Source: an uncultured Candidatus Saccharibacteria bacterium
GTDB taxonomy: Bacteria; Patescibacteriota; WWE3; 9FT-COMBO-53-11
DNA: 63,667 bases
Direction of reading: 5' to 3'
Assembly: GCA_964348395.1 (NCBI GenBank)
Contig: CAYGCK010000003.1
Coordinates: 26,095-89,761, forward strand
Position 1 is the first letter of the stretch; the number at the start of each line of letters is the position of its first letter. The position numbers and the translations under genes were made by a program. Below, one piece after another: positions 3,374-60,181 of the stretch. The notes under the pieces were generated by a model. It was not told where the DNA came from. It did not search any database and was given only the letters and a program-made list of their open reading frames with translations.

Positions 3374-4030
3374 TCAAATAGTCAGGTACTGCTGCGCCTC
3401 GGTGGTCAAAATCACCTTGGGCTGAAGAAGTGCCTTAAGAATAAGAGGATCTCGACGCTTCTTGAGTTCCTCGAATTCCTTCTCCGTCAAAACCGCGTAG
3501 TTTATCTCCTGCTTCCGCCGCTTCTCTTCTTCCTGAACGAGGTTGGTAATCTTTCTGGTCAGCCCGCTTCCTCCGACCACAAGAAGGTCTATGTCGGTCG
3601 GTTCCGGAGTCCGACCGCGAAGAAACGGGATGGAGATGAAAGCAAATTTTATCTCCCCCAGCCCACGACCGCCGGACAAGGCTCGCCCGATACCCTCCTC
3701 CTTTACCAAAAGCCCCAAGAGCTCGTTTAGATGGGTAAAATCCTCGCGAAGCGAGTAAATCAATCGATTTTTGTGCGAGGTACGCGTCAAGAGACCCAGC
3801 GAGATAAGGTTTTCGAGCTCACGGCGGACCGCGTTTATTTCGGCCCCGACGCGGCGGGTTATGGCGCGAACGTGATAGCGTGCCTCGGGTTTTAGGAGGA
3901 AAAGCTTTAGAATATCAATTCTTACCTGGGAAACAAGAAGCTTCTTTAGAGTTCCTTTTGCCGAAGCGGAAGTCGAACTAGCTCTTCTTCGGATCCTCGT
4001 TTTTGTCGTTCCAGGTCTAACTAACGGCAT
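3374..4030 (-). CDS. winged-helix (ArsR-like) transcriptional regulator fused to a nucleotidyltransferase-like domain
   Basis: The ORF track gives 3374..4072. I prefer the ATG at 4030 (MPLVRPG...) because GAGGGGGTGA lies about 11 nt upstream and this start avoids overlap with the upstream gene. The central segment RIDILKLF...VRAITRRVGAEINAVRRELENLISLGLL looks like a wHTH. The C-terminal segment RGRTPEPTDIDLLVVG resembles a minimal NTase motif. Confidence 0.5.
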   Translation of the reverse strand: MPLVRPGTTKTRIRRRASSTSASAKGTLKKLLVSQVRIDILKLFLLKPEARYHVRAITRRVGAEINAVRRELENLISLGLLTRTSHKNRLIYSLREDFTHLNELLGLLVKEEGIGRALSGGRGLGEIKFAFISIPFLRGRTPEPTDIDLLVVGGSGLTRKITNLVQEEEKRRKQEINYAVLTEKEFEELKKRRDPLILKALLQPKVILTTEAQQYLTI

Positions 4031-4052: not shown

Positions 4053-5207
4053 TCACTTTGGCAACACCTCAATCCAAGTCAACCCCCGATTAAGTTCCAG
4101 TTCCTCGTTCGTCCCACGCTTGAAAAATTTCATCCTTGAGGAGAGGTTCGAGCGGCGCCAAGTGGAGGAAACCTCAACCCCGTCCTGGTACAAAACGGCG
4201 TCCCCTTCGCCGGTTGTAGTGTAGAGCCGATGAGAAGTCCCATCCCCCGCCGAACGCGCTCTCATATAAACCAGAGCAACATTTTTTGCGAAAAGCTGTT
4301 TCCCAGTTGCCTTGTCGGTTTGTACTTCTCCCCCCTGCCATCTCAAGTAAGAATTGGTTTTTGGTTCAAAACTCCACCCGACCTGGTAAGCAGGAAAATA
4401 CCAAAAGTTGAACGAAAACTTTTGCTCTTTAGGACGCGCCGCAAACGGTGCGTCGGATTTGAACTTCCACCGCTCAAAGGCGGGCATTTTATTAGTCCCG
4501 GGGTAAAGAAGTTCGCCGGCTTGGGAAAGCTTGTCGGTTGAACTGTAGTGAATGTGGGATAGAACCCCGCCCCCGGGAAAACGCACGTCCCCGCCGTAGG
4601 TGTAGGTCGCCGACCCCAGTCTAAATTGATTTAAGGAAAGAACGTCGTTTTTGGCTATATAGGTATGTATGTTTGCCGGTCCCGGCGTGGAAGCCCCTCC
4701 TACGTGGGCGTAGTACGCCGGAAATTCCAAGGCAAAATCCATATAGTAAACGCGGGCCGAGCGGACGGGACCAATTTTCCCGACATTTTGACTGTGGAAG
4801 AGGGCCAAAAAGCGAGTGATTCCTCCCTCTGCAACCGCCTCGTAAATAATATCGGCACCTTGAAGACCAAACTGGTAAGGACGCGCCAGATAGTGGTTGT
4901 CTACCATGACCCCCAATGGTCTCCTGCCAACCCAGGAGGACTCCTCCTCCGCGGTGTAAAAGACCCCGGTTATAGGATGGGAAACTTCTTTTTTCGTGGA
5001 TTCGGAAAGAACTATTGGGGATCCCTCATCTCCCGAACCAAGCGGATCTAGGAAAGGAAGTGAGTAGTATTTGGAGACAAGAGGATATGCGATCCCGAGA
5101 GCTACAAATAGGAAGAACCAGAGCGTCAGGAGAATTTTGCGTTTGTTGGTCCGCAACCAAGTGCCGAAACGAGCTACTAAATTGCGCAATTTTTCGTTCA
5201 CCTTCAT
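4053..5207 (-). CDS. DUF3048-domain (YerB-like) secreted/membrane-anchored protein
   Basis: 384 aa with an N-terminal TM. The segment GVMVDNHYLARPYQFGLQGADIIYEAVAEGGITRFLALFHS matches my recollection of the DUF3048 family signature. Confidence 0.65.
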   Translation of the reverse strand: MKVNEKLRNLVARFGTWLRTNKRKILLTLWFFLFVALGIAYPLVSKYYSLPFLDPLGSGDEGSPIVLSESTKKEVSHPITGVFYTAEEESSWVGRRPLGVMVDNHYLARPYQFGLQGADIIYEAVAEGGITRFLALFHSQNVGKIGPVRSARVYYMDFALEFPAYYAHVGGASTPGPANIHTYIAKNDVLSLNQFRLGSATYTYGGDVRFPGGGVLSHIHYSSTDKLSQAGELLYPGTNKMPAFERWKFKSDAPFAARPKEQKFSFNFWYFPAYQVGWSFEPKTNSYLRWQGGEVQTDKATGKQLFAKNVALVYMRARSAGDGTSHRLYTTTGEGDAVLYQDGVEVSSTWRRSNLSSRMKFFKRGTNEELELNRGLTWIEVLPK

Positions 5208-12692: not shown

Positions 12693-12768
12693 CGGAGTGT
12701 GGCGCAGCTGGAAGCGCACTCGCATGGGGTGCGAGAGGCCGTGGGTTCGAGTCCCACCACTCCGACCA
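12693..12768 (+). tRNA. tRNA-Pro (anticodon GGG), CCA encoded
   Basis: Manual cloverleaf. Acceptor CGGAGTG/CACTCCG, D stem GCGC/GCGC, anticodon stem CTCGC/GCGAG with loop AT-GGG-GT (U33, G37), T arm GTGGG-TTCGAGT-CCCAC, discriminator A, then CCA. Confidence 0.9.
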
Positions 12769-53237: not shown

Positions 53238-54959
53238 TCAAGCAGGTAGTGCCCGTCCATAAATTCTCCTGACACCAGCACCCGCCGACTCCTCCTTTAT
53301 TATTTCAAATTTACCTACTCGCCCAGTTTCTTTGACGTGAGGTCCACCGCAGAGCTCTTTGGAAAAAGAACTATCCGGCTTGTCCCCGATGTGATACAAA
53401 GTAATTTCCTTAGCCTGTTCATATTTTTGGGTGAAAAGCGCTTCCGCGCCGAGTTCCTTTGCACCCTTGTAGGTCGTGACCACACGTTTAACAGGGATGT
53501 TCTCTTTTATCTTTTGGTTAACCAGCCTTTCAACCTCTTTTATTTCCTTTCCGGTGAGTTTGCGATTAAAGGTAAAGTCGTGGCGAAAACGCTCGGTTTC
53601 CAAGTGCTGTCCGGCCTGCCGCACCCGAGGGCCAAGAACCTGCTTTAGCGCGGCGTTCAAGAGGTGGGCGGCCGTGTGCTGTGGGGCTATCAGCTCGTCC
53701 TCCCCCTCTCTCTTCTTTATCGCCGCCCGCGCGCGTTTCCTTTGCTCCTCAAGCTTTTTTTCAAACTCGGAGACGTCGACCGTAAGGTTGCGTTTCCTGG
53801 CCAGCTCCTGCGTAAGCTCCAACGGAAACCCGTAGGTGTCGTAGAGCGTGAAGGCATCCACCTTCTTGTCCATCTTTTCAAGCTCCTTAAGTCCGCGATT
53901 GAGAGCACGATAGAACTTCTGCTCCTCGTCCTCGATAACCTGCTGGATCTCACGTTCGCGTAGCTCGAGTTCCGGATAGAAGTCCTTATACATCTCTAAA
54001 ACTCGGCGCGTGGGCTCCAAAAGGAAATATCCGTTTATCCCCAAGAGCCGCCCGTGTAGAATTGCACGCCGCAAGATTCGGCGAAGAACATAACCTCGCC
54101 CCACGTTAAGCGGGGTCACACCGTCCCCTACAAGAAACACTGCAGCTCGCAGATGATCCGCGATTATCCGCAGCGATCTGACATCCGATTTCTGACCACT
54201 GACCTCTGCCAATTTCTTTATCTCATCCATAAGAGGAGCGAAAAGGTCGGTTTCAAAGACGTTATCCTTCTCCTGAACGATAAGAGCCAACCGCTCCATA
54301 CCCATGCCGGTGTCGATATTCTGCGCTTTGAGCTTGGTATATTTACCTTTTTCGTCTTTGTAGTATTCCATAAAAACCAGATTCCAAAGTTCGATTTCTT
54401 GGCCTGAGGGTAAGACGTAATTTATTTCGGAGGAGGGGCCGCAGGGACCCGTCTTGCCCGGGGGACCCCAAAAGTTGTCCTCCTTGCCTTGCTCGCGGAT
54501 TTCTATTCCGGGGACCTCTTTTTTCCAAAGCTTTTTGGCTTCGGTATCCAAGGGTATATCCCCCTCGCCGCGAAAGATGGTTGCAAACATTCGCTTTGGA
54601 TCGAGTCCCAACTCCCGGGTCAGGAAATTCCATGCCAAAGGAATAGCCAGTTCCTTAAAATAGTCACCTACCGAGAAGTTACCTAGCATCTCGAAAAAGG
54701 TGTGGTGGCTCTCGTCCCCTACCTCCTCTATGTCCGAGGTACGAAAGCACTTCTGGATAGAAACCAGACGAAGATTTCCAAAATCGGCCGTGGGGTCCGC
54801 CTCCCCCATCATGTGGGGCTTGAACTGCTGCATTCCGGCGGTAGTCAAGAGTACCGACTCGTCGGTTGGAGGCGGGACAAGGGAGGACGAGGGTACCACC
54901 TTATGGTCATGAGAGGTGAAATAATCGAAAAATTTTTTACGTATTTCCTGATGAGTCAT
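53238..54959 (-). CDS. alaS: alanine--tRNA ligase, short form (573 aa: catalytic + editing domains, no C-Ala domain)
   Basis: FFDYFTSHDHKVVPSSSLVP, SIQKCFRTSDIEEVG, an editing HxxxH (HTAAHLLNAAL) and CGGPHV. Confidence 0.9.
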   Translation of the reverse strand: MTHQEIRKKFFDYFTSHDHKVVPSSSLVPPPTDESVLLTTAGMQQFKPHMMGEADPTADFGNLRLVSIQKCFRTSDIEEVGDESHHTFFEMLGNFSVGDYFKELAIPLAWNFLTRELGLDPKRMFATIFRGEGDIPLDTEAKKLWKKEVPGIEIREQGKEDNFWGPPGKTGPCGPSSEINYVLPSGQEIELWNLVFMEYYKDEKGKYTKLKAQNIDTGMGMERLALIVQEKDNVFETDLFAPLMDEIKKLAEVSGQKSDVRSLRIIADHLRAAVFLVGDGVTPLNVGRGYVLRRILRRAILHGRLLGINGYFLLEPTRRVLEMYKDFYPELELREREIQQVIEDEEQKFYRALNRGLKELEKMDKKVDAFTLYDTYGFPLELTQELARKRNLTVDVSEFEKKLEEQRKRARAAIKKREGEDELIAPQHTAAHLLNAALKQVLGPRVRQAGQHLETERFRHDFTFNRKLTGKEIKEVERLVNQKIKENIPVKRVVTTYKGAKELGAEALFTQKYEQAKEITLYHIGDKPDSSFSKELCGGPHVKETGRVGKFEIIKEESAGAGVRRIYGRALPA

Positions 54960-55276: not shown

Positions 55277-55502
55277 CGGACTCTCGATCCTCCTTTCTTA
55301 TAGGATTGTTCCTACAATTGTAGACCCAGTTTGGTTTCTTGTAAAGCGAAAGCACCAAGCTGCCCTGGTCCCTACCAACCAAGGCAGCTTGCTGCCTCCA
55401 ACCCAAAAGATTGGCAAACTCTCCCAAATCTTCTTCAAGCTTGCTCCGAGCTTGCCGAAGAGAACTTAGGAGAGGAGAGCGCCAACCCGGTTTCTAGTTG
55501 GA

Positions 55503-55937
55503 TTAGCACTCTCTTGCTTTGCGGGCTTGTTCGACCTTGGCCAAGAGCTCCCGCCGTTGCCCCGTTTTCTGGACCGCGTACCGGAAAGCCCTGTACTGGC
55601 AGTCCTTCACGTAGTGAGCTACGGCGTCGGCTCCTTCCGGCGAGAGATGCTCGAGCTTAACCGGCTGACCGGTCAAGACGTCCCAAAAATGCACAAGCTC
55701 CTCGAACATCAGAACGCCAAAGGCGCTGAACATGCGCTCGTCTGGAGTCGTTCCGTCGGTCTCGTGGTCGGCGACCGCGACGACCAACTTCCAACCCATT
55801 GCAATGAAAACAGGCCGTTCCCTTACCACCTTGACGCCCGTGGGACGACCGGGGTGCAGGACCACCTTTACTTCCTGGGGAGGAACCTCGCCAAAATCAC
55901 GGCGCACCTCTTCCCACAAAAATTGGTGGTTCGGCAA
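55503..55937 (-). CDS. hypothetical protein, up to 144 aa; start uncertain (possible frameshifted gene)
   Basis: The long ORF has only a TTG start and no RBS. A strong RBS plus ATG at 56008 opens a different frame that stops at 55868. Confidence 0.35.
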   Translation of the reverse strand: MPNHQFLWEEVRRDFGEVPPQEVKVVLHPGRPTGVKVVRERPVFIAMGWKLVVAVADHETDGTTPDERMFSAFGVLMFEELVHFWDVLTGQPVKLEHLSPEGADAVAHYVKDCQYRAFRYAVQKTGQRRELLAKVEQARKAREC

Positions 55938-56039
55938 AGAAACTTGACCCGCCGTTTAGGGAGCGTGAGCTGGGAGACCAGTCTTACCGCTCCGCTTCGA
56001 ACGGCCATCCCTTACCTCCTTTCCTTAAATTTTTTGAAT

Positions 56040-56168
56040 GCAATCCGGTTGGGATTCGAACCCAACTTGGGTTACAGGCCCACGCCGAGCGTTTGGAATC
56101 CTGTTCCCTCCCTTACTGCGGTATATGAGTGTTACCCAAGACCCGCAGGTCACATACACCCGGATTGC
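56040..56168 (-). ncRNA. tRNA-like structured RNA: 9-bp acceptor-like stem + canonical T arm, non-tRNA body
   Basis: Manual fold. GCAATCCGG/CCGGATTGC closes the molecule and TTGGG-TTCGAAT-CCCAA is stacked directly on it. A 10-bp internal helix CTTGGGTAAC/GTAACCCAAG is present, along with a possible pseudoknot (GTGTATG/CATATAC and CTGCG/CGCAG). I could find no D arm or anticodon arm. Confidence 0.5.
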
Positions 56169-56171
56169 TAG

Positions 56172-56304
56172 TGGAGTAGGCGGGATTCGAACCCGCGTCC
56201 GAACCAAGAGTTGAGGTTTTTAAACCCACGGTCTTTAAGGGGAGTTTGCTCAAGTTGGTTGTCCCCCGGGACCGCCTCTCGACTCGTCGAAACCTTTCTA
56301 CCCC
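56172..56304 (-). ncRNA. ssrA-like: tmRNA-like RNA (complete tRNA-Ala-like domain, drastically shortened body)
   Basis: GGGGTAG/CTACTCC acceptor with G3:U70, GGTTTCGAC after the acceptor strand, GGAC + GCGGG-TTCGAAT-CCCGC T arm, discriminator A, and a P2-like helix GAGTCGAG/CTCAACTC. The total is about 133 nt, against 250-400 nt for known tmRNAs. Confidence 0.6.
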
Positions 56305-56414
56305 ACGTACTCGATCAACAGCATAGCCGCTGATGCAAAGAGAATTATGGCCCAGGCCAAAGCGAGTTTGCGGCGGGCGAGCTTCTCCTTGCTGCGTAGA
56401 TCGAAGTTAGACAT
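56298..56414 (-). CDS. 38-aa single-TM peptide ORF whose stop codon lies inside the tmRNA-like acceptor stem
   Basis: My translation is MSNFDLRSKEKLARRKLALAWAIILFASAAMLLIEYVG*, with AAGGAGG 6 nt upstream of the ATG. Confidence 0.4.
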   Translation of the reverse strand: MSNFDLRSKEKLARRKLALAWAIILFASAAMLLIEYVG

Positions 56415-56500
56415 AGTTGTCCTCCTTGTCTCCTCTTTCTCAACCTTCAAGTTTCCTTGAGGGCTGGGGTGAAGAGCGCTTTTTAGTAACCCAGAAGCGC

Positions 56501-57713: not shown

Positions 57714-58063
57714 CTTTAACACTCCTGATAAGGTCTTACCTACCAACCGGATTGTTGGTGGGCTCTCCAGAACCCACCTGAGGCGGACTCTGGAGAGAAT
57801 TATTCGGTTTTCAAGGTACTAAACAGAAAAGCCGAGCCCTAGTCTTGAGGTCAAGATCTAGGTAGGGGTAGATCCGCTCGAAACCAGAGCTCGGCTTTTT
57901 GCCTTGCCAGTTGCCTTAGCAACTTAATATTATAATAACATATTATAGGATAGAGTCAAGTGTTTTTGCACGGTTAGGAACTCCGCCCCACGATTAGTTA
58001 TTCGCCAGAGGCGAACATGGCTCCTTGAGTTATTCAACGAAAGGGCCTTATAATCAAACAGGA

Positions 58064-60181
58064 ATGGCTAGACGGTACAGACGGCGAAAACTAAAGTTCA
58101 ACATCAAAGACGACAGCTTCCAATCCACCGTAGGAGTAGTTCTGTTGGTTTTTGCGGCGCTTGCTATCCTCTCATTTTTTGGCCAAGCGGCCGGGTTTGG
58201 CTCTTTTCTGCAAGATCTTTTAAATAAGCTATTTGGTTGGGGTGTCATTCTTGTCCCAATAGTCTGCGCGGTTTTGGGTTTAGTTCTTCTTCGGCTTGGA
58301 ATTAAAATTCCTTTTATTGAGTTAAGAACCGTTTATGGGTTGGCGATTTTTTCGCTCGCGCTTCTCGGACTTTTTCACTTTTTTACTCCAAAAGAACGCG
58401 CTTATTTTGAGGCCGCTACCTTGGGCCAAGGAGGAGGGCTTGTTGGATACTATCTTCAGCTTGTATTAAAGAGGATTTTCTCCTCAATCGGCGCCTTCTT
58501 AATCCTCTCATCTTCACTTGTGATAGGGACCCTAATAACCCTAAATACCTCTCTTGACGAAGCGCTCTACTACATCTCGCAAGTGGCAAAGAAAGCGAGC
58601 GAATTCCTAAAAGCGAATCTTTGGAAGGGCTCTGTTGCAAAGGAGGAAACGGTTGAGGGGCGATTCCAAAAGGATGTATCTAAAGAGGAGGGGCCGAAAG
58701 ATAAAGAAAACGCCGAGGAGATTGAAATCTCTGTCCCCTATACCTCCCCAACCACAAAGGTCATTGCACCAAAGCGAAGGGTTAAGTGGGAATACCCCTC
58801 ACTTGATATCCTCCACGACCCTCCAGACGGCGGGGCCGACCGGGGTGATATCGAAAAAAACGCCGAGCTTATCGAGCAAACTCTTGAATCCTTTGGAGTA
58901 AGGGCGCGGGTCGCCGACGTTAATCTCGGACCCACGGTCACCCAATACGCGCTTGAAGCGGGGCGGGGAACCAAACTCGCCGCCATAACCAACCTCTCCT
59001 CGGACTTGGCTCTGGCTTTAGCGTCCAAGACAGGAACGGTTAGAATCGAGGCACCTATCCCAGGAAAATCGCAGGTTGGAGTCGAGGTTCCGAATCCCAA
59101 ACCGGCCCTCGTAACACTCAAGGAAATTCTCACCTCCAATAAAATGACCGAGGACTTGAGCAAAATCGCCATCGCTTTAGGGAAGGATGTTTCCGGGGAG
59201 TCGATTGTGGACGATATTGCCAACATGCCCCACGTCTTGATAGCCGGGGCGACTGGTTCCGGAAAATCCATTATGCTTCGGGCGATGCTCGCGAGCATTC
59301 TATTTCGCTCCTCGCCTGATGAGGTTCGATTAATCCTGGTTGACCCCAAACGGGTGGAGTTTTCGAACTTTAGCGGTATCCCCCACCTTCTTATGCCGGT
59401 CATCGTGGACCCGGAGAAAACCTTACCCGCGCTAAAGTGGACGCTGGGCGAGATGAACAAGCGTTACAAAACCCTGCAGGAAGCCGGAGCCCGGGATATC
59501 GCAGACTATAATGCCAAGGCGGAGGAAAAAATCCCTTATGTTTTGGTCGTAGTTGACGAGCTAGCCGACATAATGGTCATCGCCCCCGCCGAGGTAGAGA
59601 AAGCCGTCACCCGCATTGCGCAGATGGCTCGAGCCACGGGAATCCACCTGGTCCTGGCAACTCAGCGCCCCTCAACCGACGTTTTGACTGGGCTTATTAA
59701 GGCGAACATACCCTGCCGAATCGCCTTCAACGTAACCTCGCAGGTCGATTCCCGCGTGATTATAGATATGCCGGGCGCCGAAAAACTTTTGGGGAAGGGG
59801 GACATGCTCTACCTTCCACCCGACCGCTCAAAACCGATAAGAATCCAGTCGCCATTTGTATCCAACGAGGAGATGAAACGCCTTATAGAATTTATGAAAA
59901 ATTCGGGTTGGGCGCCGGATTATATCGAGGAGGAGGTTGAGACTATCGAACGGGAAGTCGAAAGACTAGGAGAACCGTCGGATCCCCTCTTTAAAGATGC
60001 TGTAGATGTCGTTACCCAGTACGAGCGCGCCTCGGCGTCGCTTCTGCAGCGCAGACTCTCCATAGGATACGCCCGAGCCGCGCGAATTCTGGATGAGCTT
60101 GAGGAGAGGGGTATCGTAGGCCCGCAGGAGGGAAGCAAGCCTAGAGAGGTCCTGATCCGCGACCCCGGAGACGTTCTCTAA
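58064..60181 (+). CDS. ftsK: DNA translocase FtsK/SpoIIIE
   Basis: N-terminal 4-TM region, Walker A (AGATGSGKS), VVVDELADIM, and a C-terminal gamma wHTH (LLQRRLSIGYARAARILDELEERGIVGP). The ORF track's TTG is at 58025, but I prefer the ATG at 58064. Confidence 0.93.
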   Translation: MARRYRRRKLKFNIKDDSFQSTVGVVLLVFAALAILSFFGQAAGFGSFLQDLLNKLFGWGVILVPIVCAVLGLVLLRLGIKIPFIELRTVYGLAIFSLALLGLFHFFTPKERAYFEAATLGQGGGLVGYYLQLVLKRIFSSIGAFLILSSSLVIGTLITLNTSLDEALYYISQVAKKASEFLKANLWKGSVAKEETVEGRFQKDVSKEEGPKDKENAEEIEISVPYTSPTTKVIAPKRRVKWEYPSLDILHDPPDGGADRGDIEKNAELIEQTLESFGVRARVADVNLGPTVTQYALEAGRGTKLAAITNLSSDLALALASKTGTVRIEAPIPGKSQVGVEVPNPKPALVTLKEILTSNKMTEDLSKIAIALGKDVSGESIVDDIANMPHVLIAGATGSGKSIMLRAMLASILFRSSPDEVRLILVDPKRVEFSNFSGIPHLLMPVIVDPEKTLPALKWTLGEMNKRYKTLQEAGARDIADYNAKAEEKIPYVLVVVDELADIMVIAPAEVEKAVTRIAQMARATGIHLVLATQRPSTDVLTGLIKANIPCRIAFNVTSQVDSRVIIDMPGAEKLLGKGDMLYLPPDRSKPIRIQSPFVSNEEMKRLIEFMKNSGWAPDYIEEEVETIEREVERLGEPSDPLFKDAVDVVTQYERASASLLQRRLSIGYARAARILDELEERGIVGPQEGSKPREVLIRDPGDVL

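Follow-up and report, generated by a model that had tools for sequence, protein, structure and literature searches.

A candidate tRNA-mimic RNA with a conserved nested fold, encoded directly downstream of a mini-tmRNA in WWE3 bacteria

What kind of RNA is encoded immediately downstream of the transfer-messenger RNA (tmRNA)-like gene of a WWE3 bacterium, and does it belong to any family already described? The question is raised by a stretch of 63,667 nucleotides (nt), hereafter the window, from contig CAYGCK010000003.1 (assembly GCA_964348395.1, positions 26,095 to 89,761 of the forward strand) of an uncultured Candidatus Saccharibacteria bacterium of the WWE3 lineage 9FT-COMBO-53-11. A first-pass annotation, made from the letters of the window, had proposed that the minus strand encodes there a second transfer RNA (tRNA)-like RNA in tandem with the tmRNA-like gene, in which an acceptor/T minihelix is attached to a pseudoknot-capable, non-tRNA body. 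Our analysis indicates that this element is very probably a real, selected and structured RNA of nested, tRNA-topology fold, and that it is best described as a new RNA of the tRNA-mimic kind, outside the described families.

Direct reading of the sequence places the element at positions 56168-56039 of the minus strand (approximately 130 nt), where it reads GCAAUCCGG-(111 nt)-CCGGAUUGC-A, with G56168 as the presumed mature 5′ end. It starts 3 nt (CUA) past the discriminator of a 136-nt mini-tmRNA (56169-56304, minus strand, its last three letters being this spacer), and the proposed tandem spacing is thereby confirmed. The 9-bp terminal, acceptor-like helix is formed by 56168-56160 (GCAAUCCGG) and 56048-56040 (CCGGAUUGC), with the discriminator A at 56039, and the T arm UUGGG-UUCGAAU-CCCAA (56065-56049) adjoins the 3′ strand of that helix with a gap of 0 nt. 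CCA is not encoded at the 3′ end, and the trailer, which begins with UU, is U-rich. In Markov simulations, a T-arm-like hairpin together with a perfect 9-bp closing helix within 200 nt was expected 0.14 times per window.

Homologues were collected by pattern scans of genome and metagenome contigs with mini-tmRNA patterns, as well as from contigs reached via relatives of the alanyl-tRNA synthetase (AlaRS) or via the downstream open reading frame (ORF). Five more distinct copies were found in related WWE3 (Patescibacteria) contigs, so that, with the window, six different sequences were available; they represent about three sub-clades within a single WWE3 group, and each genome has one copy. These copies lie at 3816-3946 in L003 (genome GCA_001772805.1; identical in L004, L007, L009, L012 and L027), 7030-7161 in L005 (minus strand; the same as in L019 and L020), 2176-2305 in L010 (minus strand), 25-154 in L013 (minus strand) and 380-509 in L028, the last being the nearest to the window with 91% identity. 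In all six, the element begins 3-4 nt past the tmRNA discriminator (spacers CUA, CCUA and CUUA) and ends with A followed by U. A covariance model built from the six copies scored them at 135-152 bits, a circular result given that they are its own training set, and found no further match in the window and 20 other loci (213 kb), where the next best score was 14.5 bits.

The fold of the element was then defined on the alignment of these six sequences (A3), on which pair statistics were counted and compared with 500 shuffles. RNAalifold, unprompted, returned a fully nested fold with a cloverleaf-like four-way junction. On A3, 96.6% of the cells of this fold were paired and nine pairs were changed on both sides, a number that none of the 500 shuffles reached; its covariation score was 0.225 versus 0.136 in shuffles, and no shuffle was as good on four of five measures. 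When the 3′ partners were slid by 1-3 columns as a control, the paired cells dropped to 27-46%. Furthermore, a scan of the alignment for other conserved antiparallel pairings gave none with covariation. The topology is that of the tRNA cloverleaf, with four helices round one junction, and neither of the inner arms is a D arm or an anticodon arm.

This nested fold differs from the body that had been drawn from the window, in which a 10-bp helix (CTTGGGTAAC/GTAACCCAAG), the GTGTATG/CATATAC helix and a CTGCG/CGCAG helix were placed as a pseudoknot on the minihelix. The window sequence permits each of these three helices, and its single-sequence minimum-free-energy fold uses the CUGCGG/CCGCAG pairing. 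Across the copies, however, only GTGTATG/CATATAC was kept (P2, below), while the other two jointly had 62% of their cells paired, a value at shuffle level (393 of 500 shuffles were as good). Both are specific to the window and showed no excess covariation, and even L028, at 91% identity, has lost the CTGCG/CGCAG complementarity, UAAG replacing UGCG of the window. As neither of these helices is conserved, a pseudoknot is not required, and the nested model accounts for all conserved pairing. Judged from the alignment, the two helices are accidents of the window sequence, and we give a pseudoknotted body next to no chance of being right.

With regard to the individual helices (element-internal numbering, G56168 = 1), the acceptor-like helix (1-9 with 121-129) retained all nine pairs in the six copies, the only changes being A-U/G.U at pair 3 and U-A/U.G at pair 5. 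It is followed without a linker by P2 (10-16 with 42-48), which takes the D-arm position and pairs GUGUAUG (56159-56153) with CAUAUAC (56127-56121); 97.6% of the cells of this 7-bp helix were paired, with four of the seven pairs changed on both sides. Inside P2 lies P2.1 (56151-56140, GACC-UGCG-GGUC), a variable spacer hairpin for which the homologues carry GACUC-UACG-GAGUC, GAUCC-CUUG-GGAUC or GUUGC-CUUAG-GCGAC. Three of its pairs were changed on both sides, and its loops vary freely (UGCG, UAAG, UACG, CUUG, CUUAG); in the clade of the window and L028, an alternative hairpin ACCUNNG/CUUGGGU is also feasible in this region. The internal loop that follows (56139-56128, UUGGGUAACACU) holds the motif GG.UAA, in which columns G35, G36, U38, A39 and A40 of A3 are invariant, and we infer, as a candidate contact only, that the GG may act as a D-loop-like partner of the T loop.

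Between P2 and the next arm, a purine-rich, Shine-Dalgarno-like single strand of 12 nt (49-60; 56120-56109, CGCAGUAAGGGA) stands in place of the single nucleotide 26 of tRNA, and a scan for an antiparallel partner of this linker yielded none that was conserved. P3 (61-100; 56108-56069) is a long irregular hairpin of about 40 nt (GGGAACAGG-AUU-CC-AA-ACGC-UCG-GCGU-GG-G-CCUGU-AA-CCC). Its 9-bp lower stem has two pairs changed on both sides and three on one side, and its distal half, GGAU(U/G)CC(A/G)AACGCU..GCGUGGGCC, is nearly invariant, with five modelled pairs constant in the six copies and three unpaired positions that vary. The apical loop has 3-4 nt (UCG or CUUG) and there is no 7-nt anticodon loop, so the element cannot decode. 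Both inner arms are thus non-canonical, in agreement with the first-pass annotation, which could build neither a D arm nor an anticodon arm. Since the distal pairs of P3 never vary while P2 and P2.1 change with compensation, these arms point to a putative sequence-specific recognition beyond a processing signal.

A 3-nt linker (101-103) leads to the T arm (104-120). Its loop reads UUCGAAU, UUCGACU or UUCGAGU, is closed by a G-C pair in the six copies and matches the canonical UUCRANY; it varies at one position only, the equivalent of tRNA nucleotide 59 (A, C or G), which is likewise free in tRNAs. The first pair of the T stem is non-canonical in two of the six copies, where G106-C124 (alignment columns) offers an alternative, so that a 9/5 or an 8/6 reading of the branch is possible, with 14 stacked pairs either way, versus 12 in tRNA and tmRNA. 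Thus, the proposed gapless acceptor/T minihelix on a non-tRNA body is borne out by both the sequence and the alignment. The junction linkers of the element are 0, 12 and 3 nt, compared with 2, 1 and 4-5 nt in tRNA. In L003, L028 and L013, the conserved fold is at or near the minimum free energy.

Pairwise identity among the element copies was 72-95%, versus 77-96% for the mini-tmRNA and 37-75% for the 3′ flanks. Similarly, between the window and L028, the adjacent protein gene had 67-73% nucleotide identity, below that of the element. The occurrence of the element is more erratic. L008 and L003 have tmRNAs that are 98% identical and a downstream gene that is about 90% identical, and L008 has 10 unrelated nt in place of the element and 11 further nt, with a membrane-protein gene directly following the tmRNA; no target-site duplication was found at the L003/L008 junction. 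At the same spot after its mini-tmRNA, L002 carries a different, 86-nt tRNA-like element (4520-4605, plus strand) with a 9-bp acceptor (one mismatch), a 4-bp T stem, a 5-bp extra arm and a 6-nt 'anticodon' loop, which scored 23.7 bits against the tRNA-Sec model (threshold 47) and was not called by ARAGORN. In more distant relatives, L017 (about 2510-2590) and L018 (about 5-85, both plus strand), a putative tRNA-Trp with anticodon CCA was recognized by eye in the interval between the FtsK and AlaRS genes where others have the mini-tmRNA. As three sub-clades share the element position, the simplest history is ancestral presence followed by repeated loss or replacement, by which the element ranks as accessory, in a slot prone to recombination; immediately 3′ of ssrA, these genomes have a site at which tRNA-like genes get swapped.

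Such a history raises the question of whether the element is a functionless remnant, either a decaying tRNA or tmRNA duplicate or a selfish insertion of small size at the 3′ end of the tmRNA, a site well known as a hot spot of integration. The differing presence between close genomes would fit a remnant, as would the mosaic interval, with the 86-nt element of L002 and the tRNA-Trp of L017, and the weak likeness of an internal stretch to a tmRNA 5′ end (24.9 bits, E 0.005, with the permuted-tmRNA model). Nevertheless, four helices kept by compensatory changes and a conservation equal to that of the tmRNA and above that of the flanks are hard to reconcile with decay. The marks of a mobile element were also missing: there is a single copy per genome, no target-site duplication and no nearby integrase or transposase, blastn against phage genomes and plasmids gave no match for the element, and viral contigs gave 0 matches for the element or the mini-tmRNA. 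A remnant is, in our view, very improbable.

With selection on the fold as the more plausible basis, the genomic surroundings bear on how the RNA would be made. The window carries 23S and 5S ribosomal RNA (Rfam) and ORFs of the size expected for rpoB, rpoC and EF-G, as judged from size only. The element lies between genes for FtsK (58025-60181, plus strand) and a 573-aa AlaRS (53238-54959, minus strand, the best relatives of which are named WWE3 or Patescibacteria), and AlaRS is 1.1 kb downstream of it. This FtsK-AlaRS interval is syntenic in relatives, so what had been taken for an orphan-gene cluster is in fact a variable stretch inside a conserved neighbourhood of WWE3 chromosomes and not a foreign island. 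On the minus strand, the gene order is three small ORFs, the mini-tmRNA, the element, a 167-aa ORF (frameshifted here), two small ORFs and AlaRS. One promoter-like site, TTGACT-16-TATTAT with TG (57932-57959, minus strand, a consensus match only), is the sole one upstream and a candidate start of a transcript with both RNAs. In a scan of the window, terminator-like sites were found neither between it and the RNAs nor near the RNAs; given this single promoter-like site and the missing terminators, both RNAs appear to lie inside a polycistronic unit. A strong ribosome-binding site and an ORF follow 25-110 nt downstream of every copy.

These features would also suit a cis-acting 'punctuation' module, that is, a fold that only recruits RNase P and RNase Z to split the mini-tmRNA from the downstream mRNA, the excised piece being functionless, by analogy with mascRNA for MALAT1 and with tRNAs in mitochondrial transcripts. 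In addition to the unit lacking terminators and the ORF close behind each copy, the tight 3-4-nt spacing behind the tmRNA discriminator, a weak resemblance to the mascRNA model (17.7-18 bits) and the dispensability of the element, expected if other routes mature the tmRNA 3′ end, speak for such a module. However, a minihelix alone would do for this purpose, yet about 90 further nt are kept, including the distal half of P3 and the compensated P2 and P2.1, and the same mini-tmRNA occurs in relatives that lack the element (98% identity in L008). A pure processing signal thus seems unlikely, although it is the strongest of the alternatives.

The 167-aa ORF (55503-56008, minus strand) directs attention to a further alternative, in which the element would be a 5′ leader or operator, a protein- or ribosome-binding regulator of the following gene. 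The family of this ORF, a tiny one confined to WWE3 and carrying an EELxH motif, adjoins a tRNA-like element in five of the five loci that hold it (the window, L028, L005/L019, L010 with the long element, and L002 with the different short one), and in each it is immediately downstream; the Shine-Dalgarno-like linker with AUG or AUU 7 nt on could also be accommodated by a leader. In L003 and L027, by contrast, the element precedes an unrelated membrane-protein gene, with no 167-aa ORF, and the same gene stands directly after the tmRNA in the element-less L008. Two further hairpins (about 110 nt) intervene between element and ORF in L005, and in the window the element is intact while the ORF is broken at a T5 run (55918-55922), where a 1-nt shift leaves two frames of 46 and 144 aa, the result of either a pseudogene or an assembly error; the ORF is intact in L028, L002, L019 and L010. 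The protein had no sequence match in Pfam, NCBIfam or the PDB, and its family gave 12 matches among 1.8 billion representatives. Its structural model (predicted local distance difference test, pLDDT, of 90) showed weak matches to zincin/M1-peptidase and YbeY-like folds (E >= 0.046, TM about 0.4). Neither its sequence nor its predicted fold, which holds no pointer to RNA binding, allowed a link to the element RNA to be made. Control of this zincin-like orphan, the usual follower of the element, is accordingly a doubtful role, and we hold it to be improbable.

We also considered a small protein gene inside the element, in which the Shine-Dalgarno-like linker (AAGGGAGG or AAGGAAGG) would serve an AUG or AUU 7 nt on, in the internal loop of P3. 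This candidate was rejected: the frame differs between clades because of a 1-nt indel and runs for 22 to >133 codons, which indicates that conservation is at the RNA level. Likewise, no frame ending in a stop was conserved that could serve as a tag. A recorded 223-aa protein of L020 (1093-1764, plus strand; GCA_036986255.1) starts at the AUG in the P3 arm of the element, whereas in the near-identical contig L019 the gene call starts at the proper AUG and gives 167 aa; the longer call is an annotation artefact, because the RNA went unrecognised. A covariance model of the element would therefore improve annotation, given that one public record extends a protein gene into the RNA.

The neighbouring mini-tmRNA was identified by Rfam RF00023 (64.2 bits), 298 model positions being replaced by 53 nt, and shows the G3:U70 pair, a canonical T arm and one pseudoknot-like core. 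Among 10 relatives, no tag reading frame is conserved; some have short ones, for example GCA-AAC-UCC-CCU-UAA, that others have lost. This is in line with a 2025 tmRNA database paper that lists '9FT-COMBO-53-11 sp001772805' as one of two bacterial groups possibly lacking a tag reading frame (PMC11915505); the number in that name corresponds to GCA_001772805.1, the genome of L003. The mini-tmRNA with no tag has thus already been noted in this lineage and is not new; the words 'downstream' and 'tandem' were not found in the main text of that paper. A 50-aa ORF upstream of the mini-tmRNA (56298-56450, minus strand), a predicted membrane peptide, has its UAG stop inside the 5′ acceptor strand of the tmRNA (GGGG-UAG-A), an overlap that is also present in L003, L011 and L028.

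The proximity to this tmRNA and to AlaRS suggests another possible role, that of a chargeable, anticodon-less adaptor, which would receive a CCA end, be aminoacylated and either take part in ribosome rescue with the tag-less mini-tmRNA or donate its amino acid to a non-ribosomal acceptor. AlaRS, SerRS and bacterial LeuRS are synthetases that ignore the anticodon. The canonical T loop, G1-C72, discriminator A73 and the cloverleaf topology all suit an adaptor, as does its location, with a G3:U70 tmRNA as neighbour and AlaRS 1.1 kb further downstream, and the L003 copy itself has G3:U70. Five of the six copies, however, have A3-U70 instead of this alanine identity pair, no identity set could be assigned, and the 14-bp acceptor/T stack exceeds the maximum of 13 in tRNA-Sec. 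A scan of the alignment and RNAduplex disclosed no conserved complementary segment between element and mini-tmRNA, the RNAduplex output being uninformative, and relatives keep the mini-tmRNA when the element is absent. An adaptor of this kind is a long shot; if it were true, the element could be part of a reduced system of ribosome rescue in these ultra-small bacteria, as its second RNA subunit, or could supply amino acids specifically to a non-ribosomal reaction. In either case, acceptor RNAs would gain a new functional class, distinguished by a 14-bp acceptor/T branch. As for AlaRS itself, it comprises the catalytic domain and tRNA_SAD, and the full-length relatives listed are also short (about 550-680 aa); a typical bacterial AlaRS has about 870 aa, and from its length the 573-aa protein presumably lacks the C-terminal C-Ala domain.

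We favour a reading in which the element is a lineage-specific accessory tRNA-mimic RNA that is cut from a polycistronic transcript by tRNA-processing enzymes and acts in trans, a complete statement whose chances we judge to be evenly balanced. According to this proposal, the element would be co-transcribed as one unit with the small ORFs and the mini-tmRNA upstream of it and with the genes that follow. RNase P would cut before G56168, leaving the tmRNA with a 3-4-nt trailer, and an RNase Z-type activity would cut after A56039, before the trailer UU, followed by CCA addition; the acceptor/T minihelix, the U-rich trailer and the unencoded CCA appear to provide the substrate prerequisites for RNase P, RNase Z and the CCA-adding enzyme. 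The released RNA would then act as a trans-acting tRNA mimic, its minihelix and elbow engaging tRNA-recognising machinery and its invariant P3 tip binding a specific, putative partner. The RNA would be dispensable to its hosts, because close relatives lack it.

Several points weigh against this proposal. Firstly, the element is missing after similar mini-tmRNAs in L008, L011, L016 and L021, and on this repeated loss any function that it has would be non-essential. Secondly, the covariation counts are small and, as far as the alignment tells, partly inherited, because only six different sequences, all from a single WWE3 group (about three sub-clades), contribute to them. Thirdly, in the window, the conserved fold lies approximately 5 kcal/mol above the minimum free energy. 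Furthermore, the 14-bp acceptor/T stack exceeds the substrates known to us of RNase P, the CCA-adding enzyme and EF-Tu (12-13 bp), so efficient processing is not guaranteed. Finally, all steps beyond the fold and its conservation are ones that we infer.

If the proposal is true, the element would offer a handle on ribosome rescue and RNA processing in the Patescibacteria, whose translation apparatus is known as reduced and unusual. Its neighbour is among the few tmRNAs of bacteria in which the tag reading frame is suspected to be missing.

Other structured sequences were observed in the same interval. A long hairpin, GGAGGCAGC...(G)GUAGGG...GGUGCUU, recurs between FtsK and AlaRS in many WWE3 contigs (window about 55345-55400, minus strand; L006 about 2820-2880; L015 about 3600-3660; L016 about 3575-3630; L027 about 1385-1440), and Rfam gave only spurious, microRNA-precursor-like matches for it. 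An inverted-repeat module, CUCUCCUCUCC(C/U)AAG ... UU(U/A)GG(G/A)AGAG, flanks RNA genes (window about 55410-55485, minus strand; L016 3200-3250; L027 1335-1385; L002 4345-4383), its 3′ arm often ending at a tmRNA or tRNA 5′ end; a stem for processing and a module for recombination are both conceivable. L003 (4249-4385) and L027 (1219-1350, plus strand) also share a third candidate for a structured RNA (about 135 nt), which is closed by GAGAGAGUAG/CUACUCUCUC, and L016 has a related one (about 3395-3535). A hairpin resembling a T arm, GAAGG-UUCGAUU-CCUUC, is part of this candidate, together with the conserved stretches CCGAGACC..AAAAC.UUCCAAGG and GGUCGGGUUAACUCGGUACC; in L013, too, the element is followed by the start of the motif, which is not present in the window. 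A small GIY-YIG (homing-endonuclease-like) ORF stands just upstream of AlaRS in L020 (3214-3480, plus strand) and in this relative only, a further sign of the mosaic nature of the interval.

The comparison with known RNA families confirmed that no tRNA, tmRNA or other Rfam family is called on the element, which is nonetheless conserved, with covariation, in related genomes. On the window, ARAGORN called only a tRNA-Pro (12693-12768), and thus neither the element nor the mini-tmRNA, and it called none in L002 and L003. Rfam 15, searched with the window, L028, L013 and L002 at gathering thresholds and at E up to 5 or 10, gave no family call for the long element, which had no match to RF00005 at E up to 10. 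Where a tRNA has a 7-bp acceptor plus a 5-bp T stem, a 2-nt linker and a 3-4-bp D stem, the element has 9 plus 5 pairs, no linker and a 7-bp P2 with an extra hairpin; in the position where a tRNA has an anticodon arm of a 5-bp stem and a 7-nt loop, P3 is the sole arm. Among the tmRNA models (RF00023, RF04321), RF00023 matched the upstream mini-tmRNA only. The permuted-tmRNA model spanned both RNAs at 18.9-24.9 bits (threshold 47; the highest score being that of the window), with mismatched acceptor pairs. A two-piece, permuted tmRNA in which the element would borrow the upstream T arm was rejected, the match being below threshold, the would-be acceptor unpaired and the mini-tmRNA having its own closed acceptor. 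The mascRNA model RF01684 scored 17.7-18 bits against a threshold of 42.5, and RF01852 of tRNA-Sec did not match. A stretch of L003, 'GGAAGGAAGCAG', recalls domain IV of the signal recognition particle (SRP) RNA; it is not conserved in the other copies, no SRP model matched, and this candidate was discarded.

Among known systems, the tRNA-like domain of tmRNA, especially of tmRNAs lacking a coding sequence, shares with the element an acceptor stacked on a canonical T arm, a missing anticodon, a long helix leaving the junction just 5′ of the T arm and a small RNA with no reading frame; the element, moreover, stands in tandem with such a tmRNA. It differs in its 9-bp acceptor versus 7 bp, in having G3:U70 in one of six copies only, no pseudoknot and no Rfam tmRNA match, and in a structured 7-bp stem plus hairpin instead of the unpaired D-loop analogue. 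The tmRNAs lacking a coding sequence have been cited for jakobid mitochondria, some plastids and mycobacteriophage DS6A (PMC11915505).

The long-acceptor tRNAs, tRNA-Sec and allo-tRNAs, have branches of 8/5, 9/4, 8/4 and 9/3 (PMC5389517). They share with the element an acceptor of >7 bp (9 bp, as in the 9/4 and 9/3 species), a long stem at the D-arm position (6 bp in tRNA-Sec, versus 7 bp in the element) and a long extra arm beside the T arm. Whereas these tRNAs decode with a 7-nt anticodon loop and have 12-13 stacked pairs, the element has no anticodon loop, 14 stacked pairs in a 9/5 branch (9/4 plus a mismatch in two copies) and an acceptor that continues into P2 without a linker, and its two inner arms are separated by a single strand of 12 nt. 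As in MALAT1, where mascRNA is a tRNA-like fold inside a longer transcript, an RNase P cut at the 5′ end of the element would make the 3′ end of the upstream RNA; unlike the element, the mascRNA/MALAT1 elements are eukaryotic, about 60 nt long and devoid of large conserved extra arms. YrlA, a bacterial Y RNA, is comparable in size; this non-coding RNA imitates the acceptor, T arm and D arm of tRNA but does not decode. The Ro-binding stem of YrlA, on the side of the anticodon, holds the RNA termini, and its acceptor-like stem is closed, whereas the termini of the element are at the acceptor end; nor did Rfam give a match.

The element works most like the tRNA-like domain of tmRNA or a long-acceptor tRNA, but falls outside each class, because it matches no model, has no anticodon loop, has a branch that is not of 12-13 bp and lacks G3:U70 in five of its six copies. 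Mimicry of tRNA is a recurring route for RNAs into the translation and tRNA-processing machinery, taken by tmRNA, viral tRNA-like structures, mascRNA and Y RNAs, and the element, if our reading is correct, would add to these a new case from bacteria, in which the acceptor/T branch exceeds that of any known tRNA and two well-conserved arms do not decode.

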